A stretch of DNA of 64,000 bases from Dehalococcoidia bacterium (GTDB lineage Bacteria > Chloroflexota > Dehalococcoidia > Lucifugimonadales > UBA3495): positions 555,339 through 619,338 of the forward strand of contig CBDCTI010000007.1 of the NCBI GenBank assembly GCA_965222025.1. The letters are read 5' to 3'. A model generated the notes under the pieces. It was not told the DNA's origin. It saw only the letters and a list, made by a program, of their open reading frames with translations, and searched no databases. The translations under genes were made by a program, and so were the position numbers. Within the stretch, counting starts at the first letter, position 1. Each line of letters starts with the position of its first letter. Positions 8,675-45,634 of this stretch are shown here, piece after piece.

Positions 8675-8948
8675 CGTGTTCAAAGCACAGCCTCCGGCCG
8701 CCGCCTTTATGCAGGATATCAGTGGCCCATTGGAGACCTGTCTGATCCCGCTCCAATCAATGTTATCAGGTTCAGTCCTCATATGGATATCTGCCAAAAC
8801 GGCCATTGGCGGACTATGCTTTGCGCGGGACCACGCACTTCCGTAGCCGGTGGCTCAAATGGGAATTCACCGGAATTTCTTGCTTGACGGCCTAGGCCTG
8901 GAAGTGTAAAATTCGCCGAGTAGATACAGTGTCTCAATTGGACTGCAG

Positions 8949-9407
8949 TTGGCCATGGCACCTAATAAACGAAGCGCATCGGTAACTGAACGTATACTCG
9001 AAACTCTCGAGGAGCGGGGATACCGTTCAACGACTCCCCGCAAGGCGCTTGCGCTTGCCATAGGTGAGCAGGAGCACCACTTCACCGCTGAAGCGCTCCG
9101 TCAGAAGCTGCCGCCCAAGCTGGGCCGCGCCACTGTCTATCGTACGCTGAAGATCCTGGTGGACGCCGACGTTCTATGCCGCGTGTTGCTGGAGGACGGC
9201 GACCTGCATTACCAGTTGAGCCACCACGGGCATCATCACCACCTGCTCTGCGTCCACTGCGGCTCCTCCCAGGACCTGACTGGCTGCGACATTGAGGATG
9301 TCCTCGTCACCACCTCGGCCTTCCATGGCTTCGAACTGAGCGGCCACTGGCTCGAGGTCTACGGACGCTGCAGTAGCTGCGTGGAAATGGGCAAGGCCGC
9401 TGATTAG
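8949..9407 (+). CDS. Fur family transcriptional regulator (Zur-like by context)
   Basis: 152 aa with a winged helix, an HHGHHHH stretch, and CVHC...CSSC cysteine pairs. It is adjacent to a ZnuABC-type operon. Confidence 0.85.
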   Translation: MAMAPNKRSASVTERILETLEERGYRSTTPRKALALAIGEQEHHFTAEALRQKLPPKLGRATVYRTLKILVDADVLCRVLLEDGDLHYQLSHHGHHHHLLCVHCGSSQDLTGCDIEDVLVTTSAFHGFELSGHWLEVYGRCSSCVEMGKAAD

Positions 9408-9646
9408 TATCTTTAACCAACTTATTTGATACTTTTTCTCCGTTAAGCCTTGTTAATGATACGATCTCTCAGTAATTGCAAAAAACTGAGACTAAATATC
9501 ATCTCACAGACCGTACTGATACGGAGTATTGATAAACGCTTTAATTGATACTATGTCTCGCTAATCGGTTCTATTGATACAAAGTCTTGAAACGGTTCTA
9601 TTTTTGAGACGGACCTAGTGTCCAAAAAGGAGAGACCAGGCCAATC
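9408..9646 (+). promoter_or_regulatory. AT-rich promoter/operator region with six TGATA(C/A) motifs
   Basis: The region is markedly AT-rich compared with its flanks. TGATAC or TGATAA occurs near 9427, 9466, 9516, 9528, 9545 and 9574. There is a 7-bp inverted repeat tctcagt/actgaga at ~9467-9492, and an AAAGGAG ribosome-binding site before 9647. Confidence 0.5.
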
Positions 9647-11968
9647 ATGAAGACCATGACCAGAAAAACTGCCACGGTTGTCGCATTACTCACTGCCGCA
9701 GCGCTCCTGTTGCTGGCGGTAGCTTGCGGCGGGGATTCGGAGGACGAGCAACCAGAGGCCACAACCCAGTCCTCCGCCACGGGAACGACCGGCTCCACTA
9801 GTCCTGATCCAACCACGGACGCGGTTCCTGGCGTCGGCCAGCAGACAACCCCTGGACCGGCGACCCAGGCGGGCAGCCAGCCCGCCGTCGCGGTGGCCCC
9901 GGGCGAGAAAATCAGCGTGGCCACCACCAGCAACATCCTGGCCGACTGGGTACGGGAAGTGGGCGGAGACCGCGTGGACGTTTTCCCGCTACTGCCGGCC
10001 AACGCAGACCCGCACACCTACCAACCCGGCGCCCAGGACATCGCTCGCATCGCCGACGCTGACCTGGTATTCAGCATCGGCCTGCAGCTCGAGGGCGGCT
10101 GGCTGGAAGAGCTGATCGAGAACGCAGCCCGCGACCACGACTCCATTGTGGCCGTGGGTGACGTCGTAGACCCCATCAACTTTGTCGAACTAATTGATGA
10201 ACACGGCGGGGAGGGTGCCGAAGACCTGGTGGGGAGCCTGTTCATCGGCGACGGCGAGACCGGAATGATGTCGATCATCGACCTGGAGCACGGGGACGTT
10301 GAGCAGGATGCGTTCGACCTCGGCTCCCGGGCAGGACACATCTACGCCACCAAGAACGGACGCTTCGCCATCGCGGTCTCAAGCGACGCCAACACGGCCC
10401 ACGTCTTTGACGGCGGCATCTACCTGGAGGCCCACGGCGACCACTTCGACGAGGTGGAAGGACCGGTCGAGCGGATGGACATTGACCTATCCGGAGATCG
10501 CCCGGTGCACCTGTACGTCGGCTCCGAATGGGCCACCGTCTTCTACGACGGCTCCGGGGATATCGTGCTGCTCAACGAGCACGAACTGGAGGAAGAGGGC
10601 GATGAGTACGTTCCTCCGAAGCTCAACGCCGGTGCCCATCACGGCGCGGCGGTCCCTCTGGAGGGTGACCTGTTCGCCGTAAGTGCCCAACACCCGGACT
10701 ACGCGTCAAATCCGGAAGACTACCGACTCCCCGTCGGCGCCGAAATTGTTGATCTCGACGGAAACGTGCTGCACCGCGACGAGGGTTGCGAGGGACTGCA
10801 CGGCGACGCCGGTAACGGGGACATGGCCGCATTCGGCTGTATGGGCGGCGTTCTGGTCGTCGAGGCCCACGGCGGCGAGTACGAGGGCATGTTCATCGGT
10901 CCACCTGCGGGCTCCCCGGAGGACTTCCGTATCACATCGGTATGGGGTTATCCGGGCCTTGACCACTTCTTTGGACTAGGCTCGGCGGTTGGGCTCTACG
11001 TAGTCGACCCCGAGGAGGGCGCAATGGAGCAGCTCATCACCGCATCTGAAGAAGGGCCCACGCCCATCAACGTCGCCATGAGCCACGACGGTGAGGCTCT
11101 GCTGGTGCTGATGAGCGACGGCGAGTTGCGGATGTACGACGCCCACGATCTGGACCTGTTGGCCTCGGCGGACGATTTCCTGACCGAGCCCGTGGAGACC
11201 GGCTTCTGGGCCCGCCCCCATGTGGTCACCGCCCCGGGCGCGGTGTTCATCACAGACTCCGTCGGCGGCGAGGTCATGCAGTTGGACGACCATGACCTGG
11301 AGGTCGTGAACCACTGGGAAGTTGACGGCAACCCCACCAAAATCGCCTTCGTTGGCATATACGGCGAGACTGATGACCTCGAGGAACATGGCCACGAGGA
11401 GGAGCACGACGAGGATGAGGGGGAGGAGCACGCCCACGGAGAGTTGGACCCGCACTTCTGGTTCGACCCGCTGCGCGTGCAGCAGGCAGTGAACGCCATT
11501 GCCGCGCAGCTCTCCACGGCGGATCCCGCCGGCCAGACCGCCTACCGCGAGAACGCAGCAGCTTACAACCGCGCGCTGGACGACCTGCACGCCTGGATCG
11601 AAGGACAGGTTGGCGCGTTGCCCGGAGACCACCGGGTGCTGGTAACGTCTCACGACAGCTTCCAGTATTTCGCGCGGAGGTACGGTTTCGAGGTGGCCGG
11701 GGCCATCTTCCCGGTAACCACCGAGGCCGAACCCACTGCCCAGGACCTCGCCATGCTGATAGAGACCATCGAGCACGAGGGCGTACACGCCGTGTTTACC
11801 GAGAGATCCCACAGCGAGCGGCTGGCCCAGCGTGTTGCCGAAGAGACCGGCGCGGAGATCGTCGGCGGGCTGTACACCGGCTCATTGGGCGACGAAGGAG
11901 GCGAGGCCGGCACTTACATCGACCTGATGCGACACAACACCACAATCATAGTGGAGGGATTGCGATAG
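9647..11968 (+). CDS. zinc-type ABC transporter substrate-binding lipoprotein (ZnuA/AztC-like) with ~380-aa internal insertion
   Basis: Lipobox LLAVACGG. The N-lobe reads ISVATTSNILADWV...DPHTYQP. The C-lobe reads DPHFWFDP...VTSHDSFQYF...VFTE. The acidic/His-rich run EEHGHEEEHDEDEGEEHAHGE sits just before the HFW motif. About 380 extra residues lie between the lobes. Confidence 0.85.
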   Translation: MKTMTRKTATVVALLTAAALLLLAVACGGDSEDEQPEATTQSSATGTTGSTSPDPTTDAVPGVGQQTTPGPATQAGSQPAVAVAPGEKISVATTSNILADWVREVGGDRVDVFPLLPANADPHTYQPGAQDIARIADADLVFSIGLQLEGGWLEELIENAARDHDSIVAVGDVVDPINFVELIDEHGGEGAEDLVGSLFIGDGETGMMSIIDLEHGDVEQDAFDLGSRAGHIYATKNGRFAIAVSSDANTAHVFDGGIYLEAHGDHFDEVEGPVERMDIDLSGDRPVHLYVGSEWATVFYDGSGDIVLLNEHELEEEGDEYVPPKLNAGAHHGAAVPLEGDLFAVSAQHPDYASNPEDYRLPVGAEIVDLDGNVLHRDEGCEGLHGDAGNGDMAAFGCMGGVLVVEAHGGEYEGMFIGPPAGSPEDFRITSVWGYPGLDHFFGLGSAVGLYVVDPEEGAMEQLITASEEGPTPINVAMSHDGEALLVLMSDGELRMYDAHDLDLLASADDFLTEPVETGFWARPHVVTAPGAVFITDSVGGEVMQLDDHDLEVVNHWEVDGNPTKIAFVGIYGETDDLEEHGHEEEHDEDEGEEHAHGELDPHFWFDPLRVQQAVNAIAAQLSTADPAGQTAYRENAAAYNRALDDLHAWIEGQVGALPGDHRVLVTSHDSFQYFARRYGFEVAGAIFPVTTEAEPTAQDLAMLIETIEHEGVHAVFTERSHSERLAQRVAEETGAEIVGGLYTGSLGDEGGEAGTYIDLMRHNTTIIVEGLR

Positions 11969-11970
11969 CC

Positions 11971-12753
11971 ATGACTGCTACGACGACCACTCCCCCTCTT
12001 GCCGCCGAGGACGTTACGGTGGAGTTCGGGGGAATAAAGATCCTGGACGACGTGTCCTTCAGCGCCGGCCCCGGCTGCATCATGGGAGTGGTCGGACCCA
12101 ACGGGGCGGGCAAGAGCACCCTATTCAACGTGATCACGGCACTGCTGCCCGCCACCTCGGGTCGGGTGTTGATTCACGGGAAGTCCATGCAGGAATCGCG
12201 GGGCGTGGTCGCCTACGTCCCGCAATATGAGCGGGTGAACTCCCGCATACCAACGAGCGCCTGGGACGTGGTGCTGCAGGGAAGGGTGCGCCATGCCGGC
12301 TGGTTCAGGCGTCCGCGCCGCGCCGACCGCGACGCGGCGGAATCGGCCCTGAACCGGGTCGGCATGTGGGACCGGCGCAAGTCGCTGGTCTACGAACTGT
12401 CGGGCGGCCAGCGCCAGCGCATCTTCGTCGCCCGCGCGTTGGCGCAGGGGGCCGACATCCTGCTGCTGGACGAGGCCTTCAGCGGCGTGGACATCGCATC
12501 CCAGAACGCCCTCATGGACGTGTTGCTGGAACTGCGGGACGATGGACGTACCATCATGATGTCGTCCCACGACATCAACCACATGGCCCACTACTGCGAC
12601 GAGTGCCTCTGCCTCAACTGCAACGTGTGCGCCTGCGGCCCGCCCGGAGAGGTGCTGAATGAGGAGGTCATGACCCAGCTGTACGGTCCCTTCGGCGCAG
12701 TGCCTTCCCACGGACATGGACTGGCGGGAGACGATCATGGACATCATCACTGA
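11971..12753 (+). CDS. metal ABC transporter ATP-binding protein (ZnuC-like) with His-rich C-terminal tail
   Basis: Walker A GPNGAGKST, signature LSGGQRQR, Walker B LLLDEA. The tail is SHGHGLAGDDHGHHH. Confidence 0.9.
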   Translation: MTATTTTPPLAAEDVTVEFGGIKILDDVSFSAGPGCIMGVVGPNGAGKSTLFNVITALLPATSGRVLIHGKSMQESRGVVAYVPQYERVNSRIPTSAWDVVLQGRVRHAGWFRRPRRADRDAAESALNRVGMWDRRKSLVYELSGGQRQRIFVARALAQGADILLLDEAFSGVDIASQNALMDVLLELRDDGRTIMMSSHDINHMAHYCDECLCLNCNVCACGPPGEVLNEEVMTQLYGPFGAVPSHGHGLAGDDHGHHH

Positions 12754-13606
12754 GGCTCTCGCCGGGCCCTTTCAGTATGGCTTCATGGTACGGGCCCTGG
12801 TCATCGCCGTAGTGGTCGGCGTTATGTGCCCAGTGGCCGGGGTCTACGTGGTAACGCGCGGCCTGGGATTCATGAGTGATGGCCTGGCCCACTCGGTGCT
12901 CCCCGGCATCGTGGCCGCGGCCATTTTCGGCACCACCGCGGCCAGCGTCTTCGTCGGTGGCATCCCCATGGCCATCATCATGGCCCTGCTCAGCGGCTTC
13001 CTGATCAAGCGCGCCGGCATCGGAGAGGATGCCTCGGTGGGCATCCTGTTTGCTGCCCTTTTCGCCATGGGCGTGATAATGATTAGCGTGGCCTCATCTC
13101 AGGGAATCTCGGTGCAGGTCCGGCTGGAAGACATGCTCCTCGGAAACGTGCTGGGTGTGTCAAATATCGAGATGTACGTCACCCTCGGCGTGGCTGGCGC
13201 GGTCATGCTGATGCTGTACTCGCTCCACAAGGAACTGGTATTCGCCAACTTCGATCCAACAGGTGCCGCAGTTGTCGGACTGCCCACAGAAAGGCTGGAA
13301 TATCTGCTGCTGGCCCTCCTGGCCATGGTGGTTGTAGTCGCGCTGCAGGCGGTGGGCATCATCCTGGTCATCTCGATGCTCATCACCCCGGCTGCCGCCG
13401 CCCTGCAACTCACTCGCAGCTTTACCGGGGCGATGCTCGTAGCGGCCCTCATCGGAGTTGCGTCGGGTATCTCTGGCCTGTATCTTTCTTACCACTTCAA
13501 CCTGCCATCCGGCCCGGTCATGGCGCTGGTAGCCTTCACATTCTTCGTTCTTTCGATCGGTTGGAAGCAGAAGGCGGCGGGTATATTACAACGCCAGAGG
13601 GCCTGA
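12737..13606 (+). CDS. metal ABC transporter permease (ZnuB-like)
   Basis: About 8 TM segments, ABC-3 family pattern. The start is taken at MDIITEAL (12737). The ORF is open from 12716. Confidence 0.85.
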   Translation: MDIITEALAGPFQYGFMVRALVIAVVVGVMCPVAGVYVVTRGLGFMSDGLAHSVLPGIVAAAIFGTTAASVFVGGIPMAIIMALLSGFLIKRAGIGEDASVGILFAALFAMGVIMISVASSQGISVQVRLEDMLLGNVLGVSNIEMYVTLGVAGAVMLMLYSLHKELVFANFDPTGAAVVGLPTERLEYLLLALLAMVVVVALQAVGIILVISMLITPAAAALQLTRSFTGAMLVAALIGVASGISGLYLSYHFNLPSGPVMALVAFTFFVLSIGWKQKAAGILQRQRA

Positions 13607-40337: not shown

Positions 40338-43300
40338 CTAGTGGTTGTGATGGTGTCCGCCCGGCACGCCGGTCCAATCGGAGGACAATGGCGTGTCGTG
40401 GCCATCGTGATGGCCCTTCTCCTCATGCTCCTGAGCATGCCCGTTGGTGGCGCTCACTAGTTGCGTTGCCACCAACTGGGCATACAGCCCCTGCCGTTCC
40501 AGCAGTTCTTGGTGGTTGCCCTGCTCCACCGCCCCGCCTTGGTCCAGAACCACGATCCGGTCGGCGTTGCGGATGGTCGACAGACGGTGAGCAATGACGA
40601 GGGTGGTTCGCCCCTCCATCAGGTTCTCCAGGGCCTGCCGCAGCTGGCTTTCGCTCACCGCATCCAGGTGCGACGTCGCCTCGTCCAGGATCAGCACGGG
40701 CGCATTCTTCAGCAGGGCCCGAGCGATGGCGACGCGCTGCCGCTGGCCGCCCGAGAGCTGCATTCCCCTCTCACCTACGATGGTGTCGTACCCGTCAGGG
40801 AAGACCGTGATGAAGTCGTGGCAGTTGGCCTGCCGAGCCGCCTCTTCCAGATCGGCCTGCGTGGCTTCGGACCGGCCCAGCATGATATTGTCCCGGATGC
40901 TTGCGTTGAACAGGTAGGTGTCCTGCGACACAAGGGCAATCCGCTGCCGGAGATCATCCAGCTTGAACTCACGGACATCGTGGCCGTCCAGTTCGACCGC
41001 GCCGTGGCCGGGGTCCCAGAACCTCATGGCCAAGTTGGCGCATGTGGTCTTCCCTGCTCCTGAGCGCCCTACAAGCGCGACAGTGTGCCCCGGCTCCACT
41101 TCGAAGCTCACGTCGTGGAGTGCCTGCGGCTCCCCGGGGCCATAGTCGAAGCCCACGCCCGCGAATACTACCGAAGGCGCCGTCTGGTGGCCGTCCGAGT
41201 GGTTGTGGTGGTCGTGGCCGTCGTGCTGCCCGACGCCAGGGCCGTCCGCCACCGGCACGGGCTCATCGTGGATCGCGAAGAGTCTCCGGGAGGCTGCCAG
41301 CGTCTCCATCAACTGCTTCATGGTACGGGCAATGTCCGACACCGGCGCAAACGCAGCCACCGAGAGGACCACGGCTAGGATGAGCTCCGGACGGGAAATA
41401 TTCCCGTTGGTCAGCAGCCAGACTCCCACCGTCAGCACCACCAGCCCTCCCAGCGCGGTCATCGCTTCGATGAACCCGATCTGGAAAGCCCGCTCCTTCA
41501 GGAACCGCAGCTGGAAGTGGGCGAACCGCCAGCTGTTGGCCACCATCTCGGCAGTGCGTGAACGCCCCTGCCCGAAGGCAACGATTTCCCGCATGCCCTG
41601 GATACTGTCCAGCATGTGCGCATGAACGTCGCCCAGCTGGTGCCGCAGTTCCTCGCCGAGCCGCTCCGAGCGCTTCAGTGCGAAGAACGGGCTCAGCGCC
41701 ACGGCCACTAGGAACGGCGCCACTGCTATCGCCATGGGCCACGCGATCACCGCAAGGACTGCCACCACCACGCCTGGCACCACCACGGCGGTGAAAGCGG
41801 GAGTGATAGTGTGTGCGAAGAAGAACTCCACCGTCTCCACGTCGCCCCCGACCACGCTCACCAGGTCCCCGGACCGTCGTCGAGTCATGTAGGCCGGTGC
41901 CAGCGGGTCCAGCTTCCGGTAGACATCCACTCGCATTTCCGCCAGCAGACGGTAAGCAAGGTCGTGGGCCACCCAAGACTCCGTCCAGATGAAGAAGGCC
42001 GCAAGGGGTGTCAATACCGCCAGCAGGATCAGTAGCAGCGTCAACTCGCCGCCAGTGATCACCTGCCCCACCAGCAGCGCGCTGACAACGCCCACGCCAA
42101 TGGCCGTTCCGTGATGCGCCACTCCCAGAAGGAAGGTTAATATGAGCTCGTTCCGCCACGGCTTGACCAGTCCCAGCAGCCGCACCCACACGGCGATGAT
42201 GCCCAGCGCCCGTTCGCCCTGTCCGTGCTGGCGTTCGTCTGGCTGATGCTGGGCTGCCGGGGCGGCATGATGATGCCCGTGCCCGTCGTGCGCCGGTTGC
42301 GGCATGAAGGCAGCGGCATCCGGCTGCGGGCCGTGGTTTCCTTCGTCATGAACTTGGGCAGTCAGATGATGCCCGTCGCCGTGGGTGCGATGGTGCGCCC
42401 GCGCACCGTCGTGGTCTTGATTCTCATGATCGCGATGGCCGTCTTGGTCGTGGACACCGCCATGCCGTTCGTGATTCGCCGTATGGTCGGAATGTTGCGT
42501 TTCACCCTGGTCATCGTCGTGATGGGCCTGAGGCGCCTCATGATGATGCCCATGTCCCTGGTGCGCCGGACTGGGAATGAACGCGCTCACATCCAGTTGC
42601 GCGGCCAATGTCTGCGTGGCGGCGCGGCCCTCTTCTGGAGGTCGGTAGTCGAAGTCCAGCCGCTCCTGCTGCTGCGACATCAGGTCGGAGTAAAGACCGC
42701 CGGCCGCGACCAGGTCGCCGTGTGAGCCCGTCTCGACGAGCCGTCCCTCGTCCAGCACTAGGATGCGGTCGGCATTCACCACGCTGGAAAGTCGGTGGGC
42801 GATCCTCAAGGTCGTGCGGCCTTCCATCAACCGGTCCAGGGCCTGTTGAATGACCGCCTCGTTTTCGGCGTCCACATTGGAAAGCGCCTCATCCAGGATC
42901 AGGATGGGAGCGTCCTTCAGCAGTGCCCGCGCAATGGCGATGCGTTGCTTCTGGCCGCCGGAAAGCCGGACGGCCCTCTCACCTACCACCGTCCCGTAGC
43001 CATCGGGCAAGTGGCTGATGAATTCGTGGGCGTTGGCATTCCGGGCTGCCTCCTCCAGTTGTCCCTGGGTTGCGTCGGGATTACCGAAGCGAAGGTTCTC
43101 CGCCACTGTACCGTGGAACAGGTAAGTGTCCTGGGTAACGACCGACAGCTGCTCGCGCAGTTGCGTGAGAGGAATATCTCTCAGTTCGCGCCCGCCCAGT
43201 CTTATTGATCCCTGCTGCGGGTCGAAGAACCTGAGTATCAGCCAGACTATGGTCGACTTCCCGGCCCCGCTGGGACCCACAAGTCCCATCGTCTCACCCT

Positions 43301-44405
43301 CTCGCAAGGTGAACGACAGGTCGTGCAGTGCCGGGCGTCGGCCCTCGCTGTAGGCGTGGCTCACGTTGTCGAAAATCACTTCCGGAGCCAGCGGGCCAAC
43401 AGACTCAGGCGCAGCGCTGTTAGAGGCCTGTCGCTCCGGCTCCTGAACGGATGCCGGCGAGTCCATGATGGCAAATATGCCCTCCGCGGAGGACATCGCC
43501 ATCACGCCATCGTGGTAGAGCTGCACCAGCTCGCGCAGCGGGCGGAAGACCTCCACGCCAAGCATCAACACGATGAGAAGCGCCCTGAGTTCCATGTCCC
43601 CATCGGCCACCCGCACCGCGCCCCACCCTAGGGCAACGGCAGCGCCGCCGGTGATGCCCAAGATGGTCAGGGCGCCCGTCGCCGCATTTGCCGCCAGCAC
43701 GCCCATGGTGGTGCGAAACAGTTCGCGGGCCCGTTCGGCCAGCAGTTCTCCGCGTACCCGACTCTGTCCGAAAGCCTTGAGCGTTGAGAGTCCCTGAACC
43801 GCGTCCAGAAAGTCCGCGCCCAGTGCTCCGTATGCGTCGCGGCGGGCCATGCTCCGCTCCCGGTTCCAGCGATGGAACAGGTTCGGAATGATCAGGGTCA
43901 GAAGAGCGAAGGCCAGGAATATCAGGCCGGTTCGGAAGTCTATCAGCGCCATGAAGATGAAGATCACCACCGGCGCCAGCGCCGCTACGATCATCTGCGG
44001 CAGATATCGGCCGAAGAAGGCCTCGAGACGTTCCACTCCCTCCGCCAGCGACATCAGCGCGTCGCCGGTCCGTGAGGAATCGAAGTATCCCGGCCCGAGC
44101 GCCAGCGAGTGTTCGTACAGGCGCTCCCGCAGCTTCACCTTCACCAGGCTTGCGGTGTGATGGCTCATCACCTCCTGCAGGTACTGCAGGCCACCACGCG
44201 CCACAATCAGCGCCGCCATCCCCACCAGCGGCCATGTCAGAGACTCGAAGGTCGCGTTGCCGCGCACTACCTCCACGATAATCAGCGCGGCCACTGCCAG
44301 CCGCGCCACCCCGGCGGCCACCGCCAGCATCCCCACGATGGCCGAAATTATGATGCGCCAGCGAACGTCACTGGCCAGCGACAATAGCCTCGGGTGCAGA
44401 TACAT
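40338..44405 (-). CDS. fused two-half ABC transporter (TMD-NBD-TMD-NBD), CydD-CydC-like, with His-rich linker, loop and tail
   Basis: 1355 aa. Half 1 has the CydD-like RYLPQM motif, GPSGAGKST and LSGGQKQR. Half 2 has GRSGAGKTT and LSGGQRQR. The ~150-aa His/Asp/Gln-rich linker spans aa ~585-735. GQHDGHDHHNHSDGHQ lies before NBD2. The C-terminal tail is ...KGHHDGHD...GGHHHNH. Confidence 0.85.
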   Translation of the reverse strand: MYLHPRLLSLASDVRWRIIISAIVGMLAVAAGVARLAVAALIIVEVVRGNATFESLTWPLVGMAALIVARGGLQYLQEVMSHHTASLVKVKLRERLYEHSLALGPGYFDSSRTGDALMSLAEGVERLEAFFGRYLPQMIVAALAPVVIFIFMALIDFRTGLIFLAFALLTLIIPNLFHRWNRERSMARRDAYGALGADFLDAVQGLSTLKAFGQSRVRGELLAERARELFRTTMGVLAANAATGALTILGITGGAAVALGWGAVRVADGDMELRALLIVLMLGVEVFRPLRELVQLYHDGVMAMSSAEGIFAIMDSPASVQEPERQASNSAAPESVGPLAPEVIFDNVSHAYSEGRRPALHDLSFTLREGETMGLVGPSGAGKSTIVWLILRFFDPQQGSIRLGGRELRDIPLTQLREQLSVVTQDTYLFHGTVAENLRFGNPDATQGQLEEAARNANAHEFISHLPDGYGTVVGERAVRLSGGQKQRIAIARALLKDAPILILDEALSNVDAENEAVIQQALDRLMEGRTTLRIAHRLSSVVNADRILVLDEGRLVETGSHGDLVAAGGLYSDLMSQQQERLDFDYRPPEEGRAATQTLAAQLDVSAFIPSPAHQGHGHHHEAPQAHHDDDQGETQHSDHTANHERHGGVHDQDGHRDHENQDHDGARAHHRTHGDGHHLTAQVHDEGNHGPQPDAAAFMPQPAHDGHGHHHAAPAAQHQPDERQHGQGERALGIIAVWVRLLGLVKPWRNELILTFLLGVAHHGTAIGVGVVSALLVGQVITGGELTLLLILLAVLTPLAAFFIWTESWVAHDLAYRLLAEMRVDVYRKLDPLAPAYMTRRRSGDLVSVVGGDVETVEFFFAHTITPAFTAVVVPGVVVAVLAVIAWPMAIAVAPFLVAVALSPFFALKRSERLGEELRHQLGDVHAHMLDSIQGMREIVAFGQGRSRTAEMVANSWRFAHFQLRFLKERAFQIGFIEAMTALGGLVVLTVGVWLLTNGNISRPELILAVVLSVAAFAPVSDIARTMKQLMETLAASRRLFAIHDEPVPVADGPGVGQHDGHDHHNHSDGHQTAPSVVFAGVGFDYGPGEPQALHDVSFEVEPGHTVALVGRSGAGKTTCANLAMRFWDPGHGAVELDGHDVREFKLDDLRQRIALVSQDTYLFNASIRDNIMLGRSEATQADLEEAARQANCHDFITVFPDGYDTIVGERGMQLSGGQRQRVAIARALLKNAPVLILDEATSHLDAVSESQLRQALENLMEGRTTLVIAHRLSTIRNADRIVVLDQGGAVEQGNHQELLERQGLYAQLVATQLVSATNGHAQEHEEKGHHDGHDTPLSSDWTGVPGGHHHNH

Positions 44406-44468: not shown

Positions 44469-45476
44469 CTACTGGGAGTAAACGGCACCGCTCTGTCCTT
44501 CGAATACTAGGCTTACGTCCACGTCGTCAAAGGCATCGGCGTTGCCGCCCAATGCCGGAATCATGATTCTCATGTTGCCGAGCATCAGTCCCAGGTACGA
44601 ATGGTCCGGGTCTCCTGGCACTCCAGGTAGATCGTCGTCCGACAACTGGTCGACGAAAGTTGTGTTGCCTTCCCGTGCGATGATTTCCAATACCTGGCTG
44701 GGAAACTCTTCCGACCCGAAGATCGCCGGCAGTCCCAGTTCCTTTACCTGGTCTATCAGCTCCGCCATTTCCCGGGCCGAAGGTTCGGCAAAGTCCGAGG
44801 GCTGCACCGCGCCGATGACTTCCATCCCGTAGGTAAGTGCAAAGTAGGCCCACGAGTCGTGATAGGTCACCAGCTTGCGGTTCTCGGGCGGTATGGTGGC
44901 CACGGACTCACGGATCGCCGCGTCCATCGCGGCTACACGCTCTCTGAAGGACTCCAGGTTTTCCTCATAGTAGCTGGCGTTTTCGGGGTCAAGGGACGCC
45001 AGCTCCGCTTGGGCCAACTCGGCATATTTCAGCCCCAGTGTCGGGTCCGGCCAGAGATGCGGGTTGGGATGACCCTCAGACTCCGGGAAACTGAAGTCAA
45101 ACTGCCACTGCTCACGGGTGATTGCCCGGTCTCCCAGCCGCAATATCGGCGTGGTGTCCTTTTTGTTGGCCTCCGCAAGCTGCAGGGTCGGCTCCTCCAG
45201 GAACAGCCCGTTGGCGATGATCAAATCGGCGTCTACCATCAGCTTGGCCAGTGACGGCTGAGGCTCGAAGATGTGCGAGTTCACCCCTTCCGGCACCGCT
45301 CCCTCCAGTTCTATGCGATCGCCCCCAATGTTCTCCACAATGCTTGTTATGGGCGACACCGTGGTGACTACCCTGAGCTTTCCGCTTTCAACTTCCGAGC
45401 CACCGCAAGACACGGCGCTCAGAAGCAATGCCAGTATGCAAATAGTGAGACCGAAGACGGGAAAACGCTTAGTCAA
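44469..45476 (-). CDS. metal ABC transporter substrate-binding lipoprotein (TroA/ZnuA cluster A-I family)
   Basis: TTG start at 45476, with GGGGA 9 nt upstream. Lipobox LLSAVSCGG. Candidate metal ligands are NSHIFEP, NPHLWPDP, TYHDSWAYF and DDL. Confidence 0.85.
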   Translation of the reverse strand: MTKRFPVFGLTICILALLLSAVSCGGSEVESGKLRVVTTVSPITSIVENIGGDRIELEGAVPEGVNSHIFEPQPSLAKLMVDADLIIANGLFLEEPTLQLAEANKKDTTPILRLGDRAITREQWQFDFSFPESEGHPNPHLWPDPTLGLKYAELAQAELASLDPENASYYEENLESFRERVAAMDAAIRESVATIPPENRKLVTYHDSWAYFALTYGMEVIGAVQPSDFAEPSAREMAELIDQVKELGLPAIFGSEEFPSQVLEIIAREGNTTFVDQLSDDDLPGVPGDPDHSYLGLMLGNMRIMIPALGGNADAFDDVDVSLVFEGQSGAVYSQ

Positions 45477-45490
45477 TCCTGGTATCCCCT

Positions 45491-45634
45491 GATTAATTCC
45501 AGCCCGATTAATTCCAACCCGGTTAATTCCAGCCCGGTTAATTTCAGCCCGGTTAATTCCAGCCCGGTTAATTCCAGCCCGGTTAATTCCAGCCTTGTTA
45601 ATTCCAGCCTGATTAATTCCAGCCTGCTGAATCC
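45491..45634. repeat. 15-bp tandem repeat, ~9.5 copies (ggttaattccagccc), between the Fur-like gene and the binding-protein gene
   Basis: Units every 15 bp from 45491. Copies 3, 5 and 6 are identical and the edge copies are degenerate. Confidence 0.92.

Follow-up and report, generated by a model that had tools for sequence, protein, structure and literature searches.

A predicted AztD-like propeller nested within an AztC-like metal-binding lipoprotein of Chloroflexota

The open reading frame (ORF) at 9647-11968 (+) of the DNA analyzed here, a 64,000-nucleotide stretch of contig CBDCTI010000007.1 from a Dehalococcoidia bacterium (hereafter the window), encodes a 773-residue lipoprotein that resembles the binding protein of a metal ATP-binding cassette (ABC) importer interrupted midway by several hundred residues, which raises the question of what the interrupting segment is and what it could do there. 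An earlier note on this DNA had proposed that ZnuA/AztC-type lobes flank an AztD-type propeller nested at the position of the His-rich loop, and knew of no description of such an architecture. Direct passage of zinc from protein to protein has been documented in few cases, that from AztD to AztC among them, and to our knowledge the transient AztD-AztC complex is known from docking only. We conclude that the finding is real, that is, that a nested AztC[AztD] protein is widespread and under-annotated in Chloroflexota, the identities of its domains as an AztD insert and an AztC-like binding protein being near certain. The components AztC and AztD are already known, and what is new is their natural nesting in one chain and not a biochemical principle.

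The 773 codons formed a single uninterrupted frame in translation, the features of which are collected in Table 1 together with those of the neighboring genes. PF01297, the Pfam ZnuA family, matched the product in two parts set apart from each other (E 3e-83; 279.6 bits, cut-off 29), the second of which was C-terminal (amino acids (aa) 577-770), and the approximately 380 residues between the lobes (aa 196-575, nucleotides 10232-11371) ended directly before EEHGHEEEHDEDEGEEHAHGE, which is followed by L-DPHFW. These observations bore out both the layout of two lobes around an insertion of this size and the position of its end, which the earlier note had placed just ahead of an acidic/His run and the HFW motif. 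The base composition was even over the N-terminal part, the insert, and the C-terminal part (GC 0.65, 0.64, and 0.65; GC at third codon positions 0.75, 0.80, and 0.81, respectively). Cys27 of the lipobox was at least 90% conserved in alignment A1, and the relatives also carried lipobox-like motifs. An AlphaFold2 model of the fusion protein, built with 43 homologues as input, had a mean predicted local distance difference test (pLDDT) score of 80 and a predicted template modeling score (pTM) of 0.54.

The NCBIfam AztD model (NF038015) matched aa 202-569 with E values of 4e-33 in the whole protein and 4e-34 in the insert alone, covering model positions 3-354 of 356, at a score of 115-118 bits that lies under the model cut-off of 400. 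Judged by these sequence scores, the insert is a distant AztD homologue and not an equivalog. Phmmer comparison with the PDB sequences also gave end-to-end alignments with AztD of Paracoccus denitrificans (PdAztD, 6CK1; E 2e-32) and of C. koseri (6CMK/6N01; E 6e-30). Residues 196-570 were all-beta in the AlphaFold2 model with pLDDT about 90, and when the model of the fusion protein was searched against the PDB with Foldseek, the top nine matches were all AztD chains (E 1e-29 to 1e-26), with target-normalised TM values of 0.84-0.85 and a root-mean-square deviation of about 3 Å over about 385 columns. The insert is thus not disordered or of an unrelated fold, one of the outcomes by which the earlier note would have been refuted, and its assignment as an AztD-type propeller was upheld by the NCBIfam model, the phmmer match to 6CK1, the Foldseek superposition (TM 0.85), and the metal ligands described below. 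On the other side, no Pfam family matched aa 196-575 at E ≤0.01, and Pfam-based annotation is therefore blind to the AztD-like insert.

The crystal structure paper on AztD defined two zinc sites and a disulfide (PMC6689063), the counterparts of which were sought in a comparison of 80 proteins, made up of the window's protein and 79 others from all but one of the 80 related loci retrieved, whose alignment spans 36-85% identity to the window's protein. For site 1, H124, H167, and H218 of PdAztD aligned to H288, H332, and H385 of the fusion protein, which were conserved in 80, 77, and 76 of the 80 sequences, respectively. For site 2, H99, G100, H102, and D104 aligned to H263, G264, H266, and D268, with H263, H266, and D268 each conserved in 79/80, and the disulfide C214-C231 aligned to C381/C398, both cysteines being present in all 80. 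In AztD, site 2 is formed by an extension of the N- and C-terminal strands together with the blade-2 hairpin and is the transfer-competent zinc site, while site 1 in the central pore does not serve for transfer in vitro (PMC6689063). This extension was reproduced in the AlphaFold2 model by strands 196-202 and 563-570 and a long hairpin (250-263/266-276) with an HGDH turn at its tip. As the extension is built from the terminal strands, the termini of the propeller would be adjacent, which permits nesting, and site 2 would be located directly at the attachment point, beside the metal cleft.

On either side of the propeller, the model had a segment of low confidence (aa 178-191 and 575-600; pLDDT <50), and both linkers were rich in His and acidic residues across the family. 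The N-terminal linkers had a median of 30 aa with 5 His, His186 being present in 65/80, and the C-terminal ones a median of 28 aa with 7 His (6 in aa 574-600 of the fusion protein); the latter all ended in H-x-H-G-x-x-DPHFWF, with H595 and H597 invariant (80/80) and H583 found in 55/80. The D-loop of P. denitrificans AztC (PdAztC), residues 117-133 (PMC7463823), corresponded to aa 582-598 by the offset from His138/Trp140, and this loop of AztC is required for zinc transfer from AztD (PMC6689063, PMC7463823). Since His/acidic linkers occur on both sides of the propeller, the ancestral His-rich loop appears to have been split, with the propeller nested within it. In the predicted structure the AztD domain sits inside the His-rich D-loop between two flexible His/acidic linkers, and the nesting site proposed earlier was supported by the linkers, the AztC alignment, and the invariant H595 and H597.

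The remainder of the protein was most similar to AztC. Among the NCBIfam binding-protein models, AztC (NF040870) scored best (275.8 bits, E 4e-82) against only 82 bits for ZnuA, and its equivalog cut-off of 350 was not reached, a shortfall due to the insert, which divides the match. In silico deletion of the insert (aa 196-573) gave one continuous alignment to PdAztC 5W56 (query 2-308 versus chain 2-281; E 7e-39). The N-lobe aligned with PsaA residues 24-119, His67 included, and showed alternating strands and helices in the AlphaFold2 model; in the Foldseek search the AztD chains were followed by YfeA, MntC, PsaA, AztC (5W57), and TroA at E about 1e-13. The predicted full-length structure, which had been suggested as a check, contained a two-lobe binding-protein fold in addition to the propeller, the backbone helices 608-625 and 627-656 joining the two alpha/beta lobes.

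The metal ligands H67, H139, E205, and D280 of PsaA mapped onto H123, H603, H669, and G745, a correspondence that points to a three-histidine zinc-type site. H123 was conserved in 78/80 and H603 and H669 in 80/80 each, and together with the Trp after the second ligand His (W605) these residues were kept in 78-80 of the 80 sequences; position 745, equivalent to Asp279 of AztC, was Gly in 74/80. The earlier designation of the backbone as AztC/ZnuA-type thus stood as regards the best-scoring model and the continuous alignment to 5W56, and did not extend to the Asp279 ligand. It may be speculated that the missing Asp leaves an open coordination position, which might favor a shared-ligand intermediate.

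The distribution of the architecture bears directly on whether the ORF could have arisen as a chimera in assembly or through the fusion of neighboring aztC and aztD genes into a pseudogene. A scan with one genome per species found 80 loci with essentially full-length matches of 33-83% identity. The carriers were nearly all Dehalococcoidia/SAR202, unclassified Chloroflexota, or Caldilineaceae metagenome-assembled genomes (MAGs), including many complete long-read chromosomes and many sponge-derived bins; one bin was labelled Acidimicrobiia, and one homologue came from a Geodia barretti assembly. Word-indexed searching brought up 640 proteins with E ≤1e-10; the best 120 clusters among them comprised 661-827 aa, aligned over 86% or more of the query with 63-87% identity, and had PF01297 as their only precomputed domain. 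When the architecture was scored with profiles derived from the family alignment for the N-lobe, AztD, and the C-lobe, the order N-lobe/AztD/C-lobe was found in 79 of the 80 proteins compared, down to 36% identity, the exception being a truncated AztD/C-lobe reading frame at locus L036. Apart from that truncated frame nothing was found in favor of a chimera, which the earlier note had named as another possible refutation. Against it stand the continuous frame with its even composition, the same order in 79/80 proteins with complete long-read chromosomes among them, the matches of more than 120 protein clusters, and the fact that a join between neighboring genes cannot put one gene inside another. 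On this conservation of architecture the chimera was rejected, and it is hardly credible.

Two diverged fusion copies occurred in the same genome in several cases (L006/L018, L010/L028, L027/L050, L058/L070, and P0001 plus L009 of Dehalococcoidia), and neither a second fusion copy nor a separate aztD was present within the 64-kb window. The members of the family bore only the source names "ZnuA", "MntA, partial", or "hypothetical protein [SAR202 cluster bacterium]", and the nested single-chain AztC/AztD arrangement was not found in the AztD or AztC literature searched. The remark of the earlier note on the lack of a description was sustained for that literature, and has to be qualified in that the arrangement is common in the databases under the labels ZnuA, MntA, and hypothetical.

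The fusion gene is preceded by genes for an M48 peptidase (-) and a Fur-family regulator and followed by those for an ABC ATPase and an ABC-3 permease (Table 1), and the operon including the fur-family gene was syntenic in the closest relative (homologue P0001), which was used for this comparison since an exact look-up of the window's protein found no record in public assemblies. The ATPase matched the NCBIfam models for MntA, the anchored-repeat ATPase, and AztA, each below cut-off, and the best match of the permease was AztB (E 2e-55, below cut-off). Among the 79 related loci, 29 had a fur-family gene immediately ahead in the same orientation, and about 40 had ATPase and permease genes directly downstream.

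Table 1. Features of the fusion gene and its neighborhood (positions in the window).
Feature	Position	Strand	Basis
Operator-like box AGATAC-AGT-GTCTCA, upstream of the Fur-family gene	8922..8936	+	One mismatch to TGAKAC-N3-GTMTCA
Fur-family regulator, 152 aa, putative Zur	8949..9407	+	Pfam FUR, E 1e-23
Six operator-like boxes, TGATAC-N3-GTCTCA type	9427..9589	+	Starts 9427, 9457, 9487, 9517, 9546, 9575
Signal peptide and lipobox, aa 1-27 (...LLAVAC; A-V-A-C, Cys27)	9647..9727	+	Translation
Disordered stalk, Thr/Pro/Gly/Gln-rich, ~57 residues, aa 28-84	9728..9898	+	Low-complexity sequence; pLDDT about 26-33
N-lobe of binding protein, aa 85-177, ligand His123 (DPHTY)	9899..10177	+	PsaA alignment; AlphaFold
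N-terminal linker, aa 178-195, ELIDEHGGEGAEDLVGS, first half of split His/acidic loop	10178..10231	+	pLDDT
Nested AztD-like beta-propeller, aa 196-573	10232..11365	+	NCBIfam AztD; PDB 6CK1; Foldseek
C-terminal linker, aa 574-600, ETDDLEEHGHEEEHDEDEGEEHAHGEL, His/acidic D-loop remnant	11366..11446	+	pLDDT; alignment
C-lobe, aa 601-773 and stop; His603 (DPHFW), His669 (TSHDSF), Gly745	11447..11968	+	Pfam; PsaA alignment
ABC transporter ATP-binding subunit	11971..12753	+	Pfam ABC_tran, E 5e-31
ABC-3 metal permease, AztB-like	12716..13606	+	Pfam ABC-3, E 1e-65

The six operator-like boxes upstream of the fusion gene were phased every 29-30 bp in an AT-rich spacer (9408-9646). Nine such boxes occurred in the window as a whole, 7 of them within 8922-9589; as 6 of 100 shuffles also reached 9, this count is not significant by itself. 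In the related loci, however, boxes with at most one mismatch amounted to 0.825/kb upstream against 0.014/kb elsewhere, an approximately 60-fold difference, and were found at 48 of the 79 loci. The heptamer TTGATAC was only marginally in excess in the window (8 versus 2.5 expected), and the 15-bp palindrome was more informative. We read the palindromic box as a putative operator, bound by the Fur-family repressor that is encoded next to it. Operators of this family do not usually take the form of six sites in a phased array.

With regard to function, it is likely that the fusion protein is the lipid-anchored binding protein of an ABC importer for a metal, most likely zinc, equipped with a cis-tethered capture and hand-off module. 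In the mechanism we propose, scarce zinc would be captured at the cell surface by sites 1 and 2 of the propeller and by the His/acidic linkers; site 2 (H263/H266/D268), in which a linker His probably takes the place of the free C-terminal His408, would hold the zinc and pass it in cis to the three-His site H123/H603/H669, a few residues off in the chain, whereupon the loaded binding protein would dock on the AztB-like permease and deliver it. The fusion would render the hand-off independent of concentration, with proximity and 1:1 stoichiometry guaranteed. Chloroflexota are generally regarded as monoderm, and because a soluble chaperone would be lost from a monoderm cell without a periplasm, the fusion would be useful in such an envelope. 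Transfer of zinc within the chain is the best-supported reading of the sequence and the model, and a rather probable one; we further infer the zinc specificity of the importer and Zur-type regulation of the operon.

Several observations weigh against this proposal. Site 2 of the fusion protein has no free C-terminus, so that His408 of PdAztD lacks a fixed counterpart, and the candidate replacements in the linker, H583 (55/80) and H581 (31/80), are far from invariant. The acceptor site is not identical to that of AztC, its fourth ligand Asp279 being replaced by Gly745, and the low pTM of 0.54 makes the docking geometry of the propeller on the binding protein a low-confidence prediction. The NCBIfam Fur, PerR, and Zur models all scored far below cut-off for the regulator, which can be called no more than a candidate Zur. 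Of the 79 loci, 14 lacked both transporter and fur-family genes over a distance of 6 kb; the loci without transporter genes may represent orphan paralogues, maybe binding proteins that share one permease. Moreover, P. denitrificans AztD and the D-loop gave modest growth phenotypes only (PMC7731109), which makes the selective benefit uncertain.

Alternatively, the propeller might bind zinc mainly as a local store, buffer, or gate of the binding site, with no in-chain donation. Such a role would be consistent with the conservation in the fusion family of site 1, which is no transfer site in vitro (PMC6689063), with the AztD knock-outs of P. denitrificans, which affected periplasmic zinc accumulation more than growth (PMC6689063, PMC7731109), and with the low-confidence inter-domain geometry. 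We consider it unlikely, however, since the ligands of site 2, the transfer site, were rated the most conserved of the insert (79/80), site 2 is modeled at the attachment point next to the cleft, and the His-rich D-loop required for transfer is kept, with its two invariant His residues. Hand-off within the chain remains the preferred reading.

More doubtful still is the idea that the imported metal is Mn, Fe, Co, or Ni and that the specificity of the propeller has shifted likewise. The NCBIfam Mn and Mn/Fe models for the binding protein and the ATPase nearly matched the scores of the Azt models, the best scores of the regulator were those of the Fur and PerR models, and AztC belongs to Group III, which is usually tied to Fe and Mn (PMC7731109). 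Against these stand His669 at the position where the Mn-type PsaA has Glu205, the absence of the Mn/Fe-site Asp (G745), the His/acidic loops, a hallmark of zinc-specific cluster A-I proteins (PMC6689063), the conserved zinc ligands of AztD sites 1 and 2, and the sister architectures to which ZinT, another zinc module, has been added. Very improbable, finally, is a propeller serving as a surface adhesion or partner-binding module with vestigial metal binding: the retention of the ligands in 76-80 of 80 sequences at 36% overall identity is unlike vestigial sites, and the operon comprises a metal importer and a Fur-family regulator. What could be adduced for adhesion is that many carrier genomes are sponge-associated MAGs, with the homologue from G. 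barretti, that laminin binding is an additional property of certain cluster A-I proteins (Lmb, Lbp; PMC7463823), and that AztD-like domains occur in surface proteins with FG-GAP or type IX secretion system (T9SS) sorting domains as well. A zinc-binding protein with a tethered donor module continues to be the reading that we favor.

Comparison with known systems placed the fusion protein closest to AztABCD of P. denitrificans (5W57, 6CK1), in which AztC is served by the separate periplasmic chaperone AztD. Both modules are homologous to those of the fusion protein; the AztD disulfide and sites 1 and 2 (His408 apart) are retained, the DPHxW motif comes after a D-loop that contains His, the permease matches AztB best, and a Fur-family gene is adjacent. 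The fusion protein differs in being one polypeptide with AztD nested in the D-loop rather than encoded by its own gene, in having Gly for Asp279 and linker histidines for the C-terminal His408 of site 2, in being a long-stalk lipoprotein of a monoderm phylum rather than periplasmic, and in falling short of the NCBIfam equivalog thresholds of AztC as well as AztD. Streptococcal AdcA (7JJ9; PMC7858048) is likewise a single-chain lipoprotein of a Gram-positive-type envelope that joins a zinc-binding protein with a His-rich loop to an accessory zinc-recruiting domain, and its accessory parts aid uptake under zinc restriction; unlike the nested AztD propeller, however, its accessory domain is the lipocalin-like ZinT in C-terminal tandem. 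With ZnuA the fusion protein shares a three-histidine zinc site without Asp and an acidic, His-rich flexible loop beside it. A role in the recruitment of zinc and of accessory proteins has been ascribed to that loop (PMC6689063), stand-alone ZinT docking on the loop of ZnuA, whereas the fusion protein carries within it a folded domain that ZnuA lacks. A curated precedent for nesting at the His-rich loop with a different domain appears to be TIGR03772, an "anchored repeat" substrate-binding protein of cluster A-I in which an accessory domain seems to lie between the lobes at the same loop; judged from model coordinates only, positions ~100-305 match choice-of-anchor M and the C-lobes match 310-486, the inserted domain being choice-of-anchor M/TIGR03769 and not AztD.

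Further architectures emerged from an exhaustive phmmer search with the insert against 1.84 billion representatives, which yielded 600 relatives, 392 of them at E ≤1e-10. The order N-lobe/AztD/C-lobe was found with inserts only about 30% identical (P0172, P0178, P0185, P0189, P0213, and P0240), and there were variants with two propellers (N-lobe/AztD/AztD/C-lobe; P0147 and P0292, 1216 aa) and with ZinT (N-lobe/ZinT/AztD/C-lobe; P0191, 895 aa), as well as ZinT-AztD fusions. Choice-of-anchor M/TIGR03769 was located N-terminal to AztD-like propellers in P0143, P0151, and P0158, which, together with its apparent nesting in TIGR03772, hints that the choice-of-anchor M "anchored repeat" domain is a metal-acquisition module. 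In a 2432-aa protein of Diplonema papillatum (P0170, KAJ9458053.1), five tandem AztD-like domains preceded a ZIP zinc transporter domain (PF02535, aa 2114-2422). Recorded as "Histidine-rich membrane protein KE4-like", this protein looks like a protist chaperone-to-transporter fusion.

These combinations suggest that the His-rich loop tolerates and recruits multiple accessory zinc modules. With single and double AztD, ZinT plus AztD, and choice-of-anchor M as examples of insertion at the loop, we tentatively suggest that it acts as a general docking port open to repeated insertions. If so, AztC[AztD] would preserve the arrangement of the two proteins during transfer, in which the cleft would be faced by site 2. 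Stand-alone AztDs close to the nested domain were also present, namely P0142 (417 aa, 69% identical) and P0144 (461 aa, 57%), both secreted or lipoproteins, P0142 having a C-terminal His as well as a signal peptide, and they may be a donor lineage or products of gene fission. They were closer to the nested domain than some nested copies were to each other. In a neighbor-joining tree of 196 AztD domains, the nested ones were not monophyletic, falling into three adjacent Chloroflexota clades and 7 scattered singletons, and P0142, P0144, and a few other AztD fusions were positioned near or inside the Chloroflexota group. The tree, which is crude and not decisive, suggests more than one event of insertion or fission; a single origin of the fusion was not backed by it.

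As a natural fusion, the protein provides a Rosetta-stone link that independently supports the action of AztD through the D-loop and site 2, and it offers a stable, stoichiometric single-chain construct for structural and kinetic work; if the loop is indeed a docking port, it would be a ready-made single-chain model for protein-to-protein zinc transfer. The accessory modules AztD, ZinT, and choice-of-anchor M seem to be freely combined with transporters, as exemplified by the eukaryotic ZIP protein with five AztD-like domains. The family is large and under-annotated in abundant marine and sponge-associated Chloroflexota (SAR202/Dehalococcoidia, Caldilineaceae), an annotation gap that matters for interpreting zinc acquisition in the zinc-poor ocean and in symbiont habitats.

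The only other relative of the fusion protein in the window was a second AztC-like binding protein, encoded at 44469-45458 (-), which is uninterrupted (NF040870 in one stretch, E 1e-52) and keeps the Asp, having H/H/H/D ligands. Its gene adjoins that of a 1355-aa fused ABC exporter-type protein (40338-44405) and not a metal permease. Immediately upstream of it, a tandem repeat at 45493-45624 comprised 8.8 copies of a 15-bp unit (TTAATTCCAGCCCGG, 92% matches), which reads AGINR/AGINQ in frame within its longest ORF and is probably non-coding.

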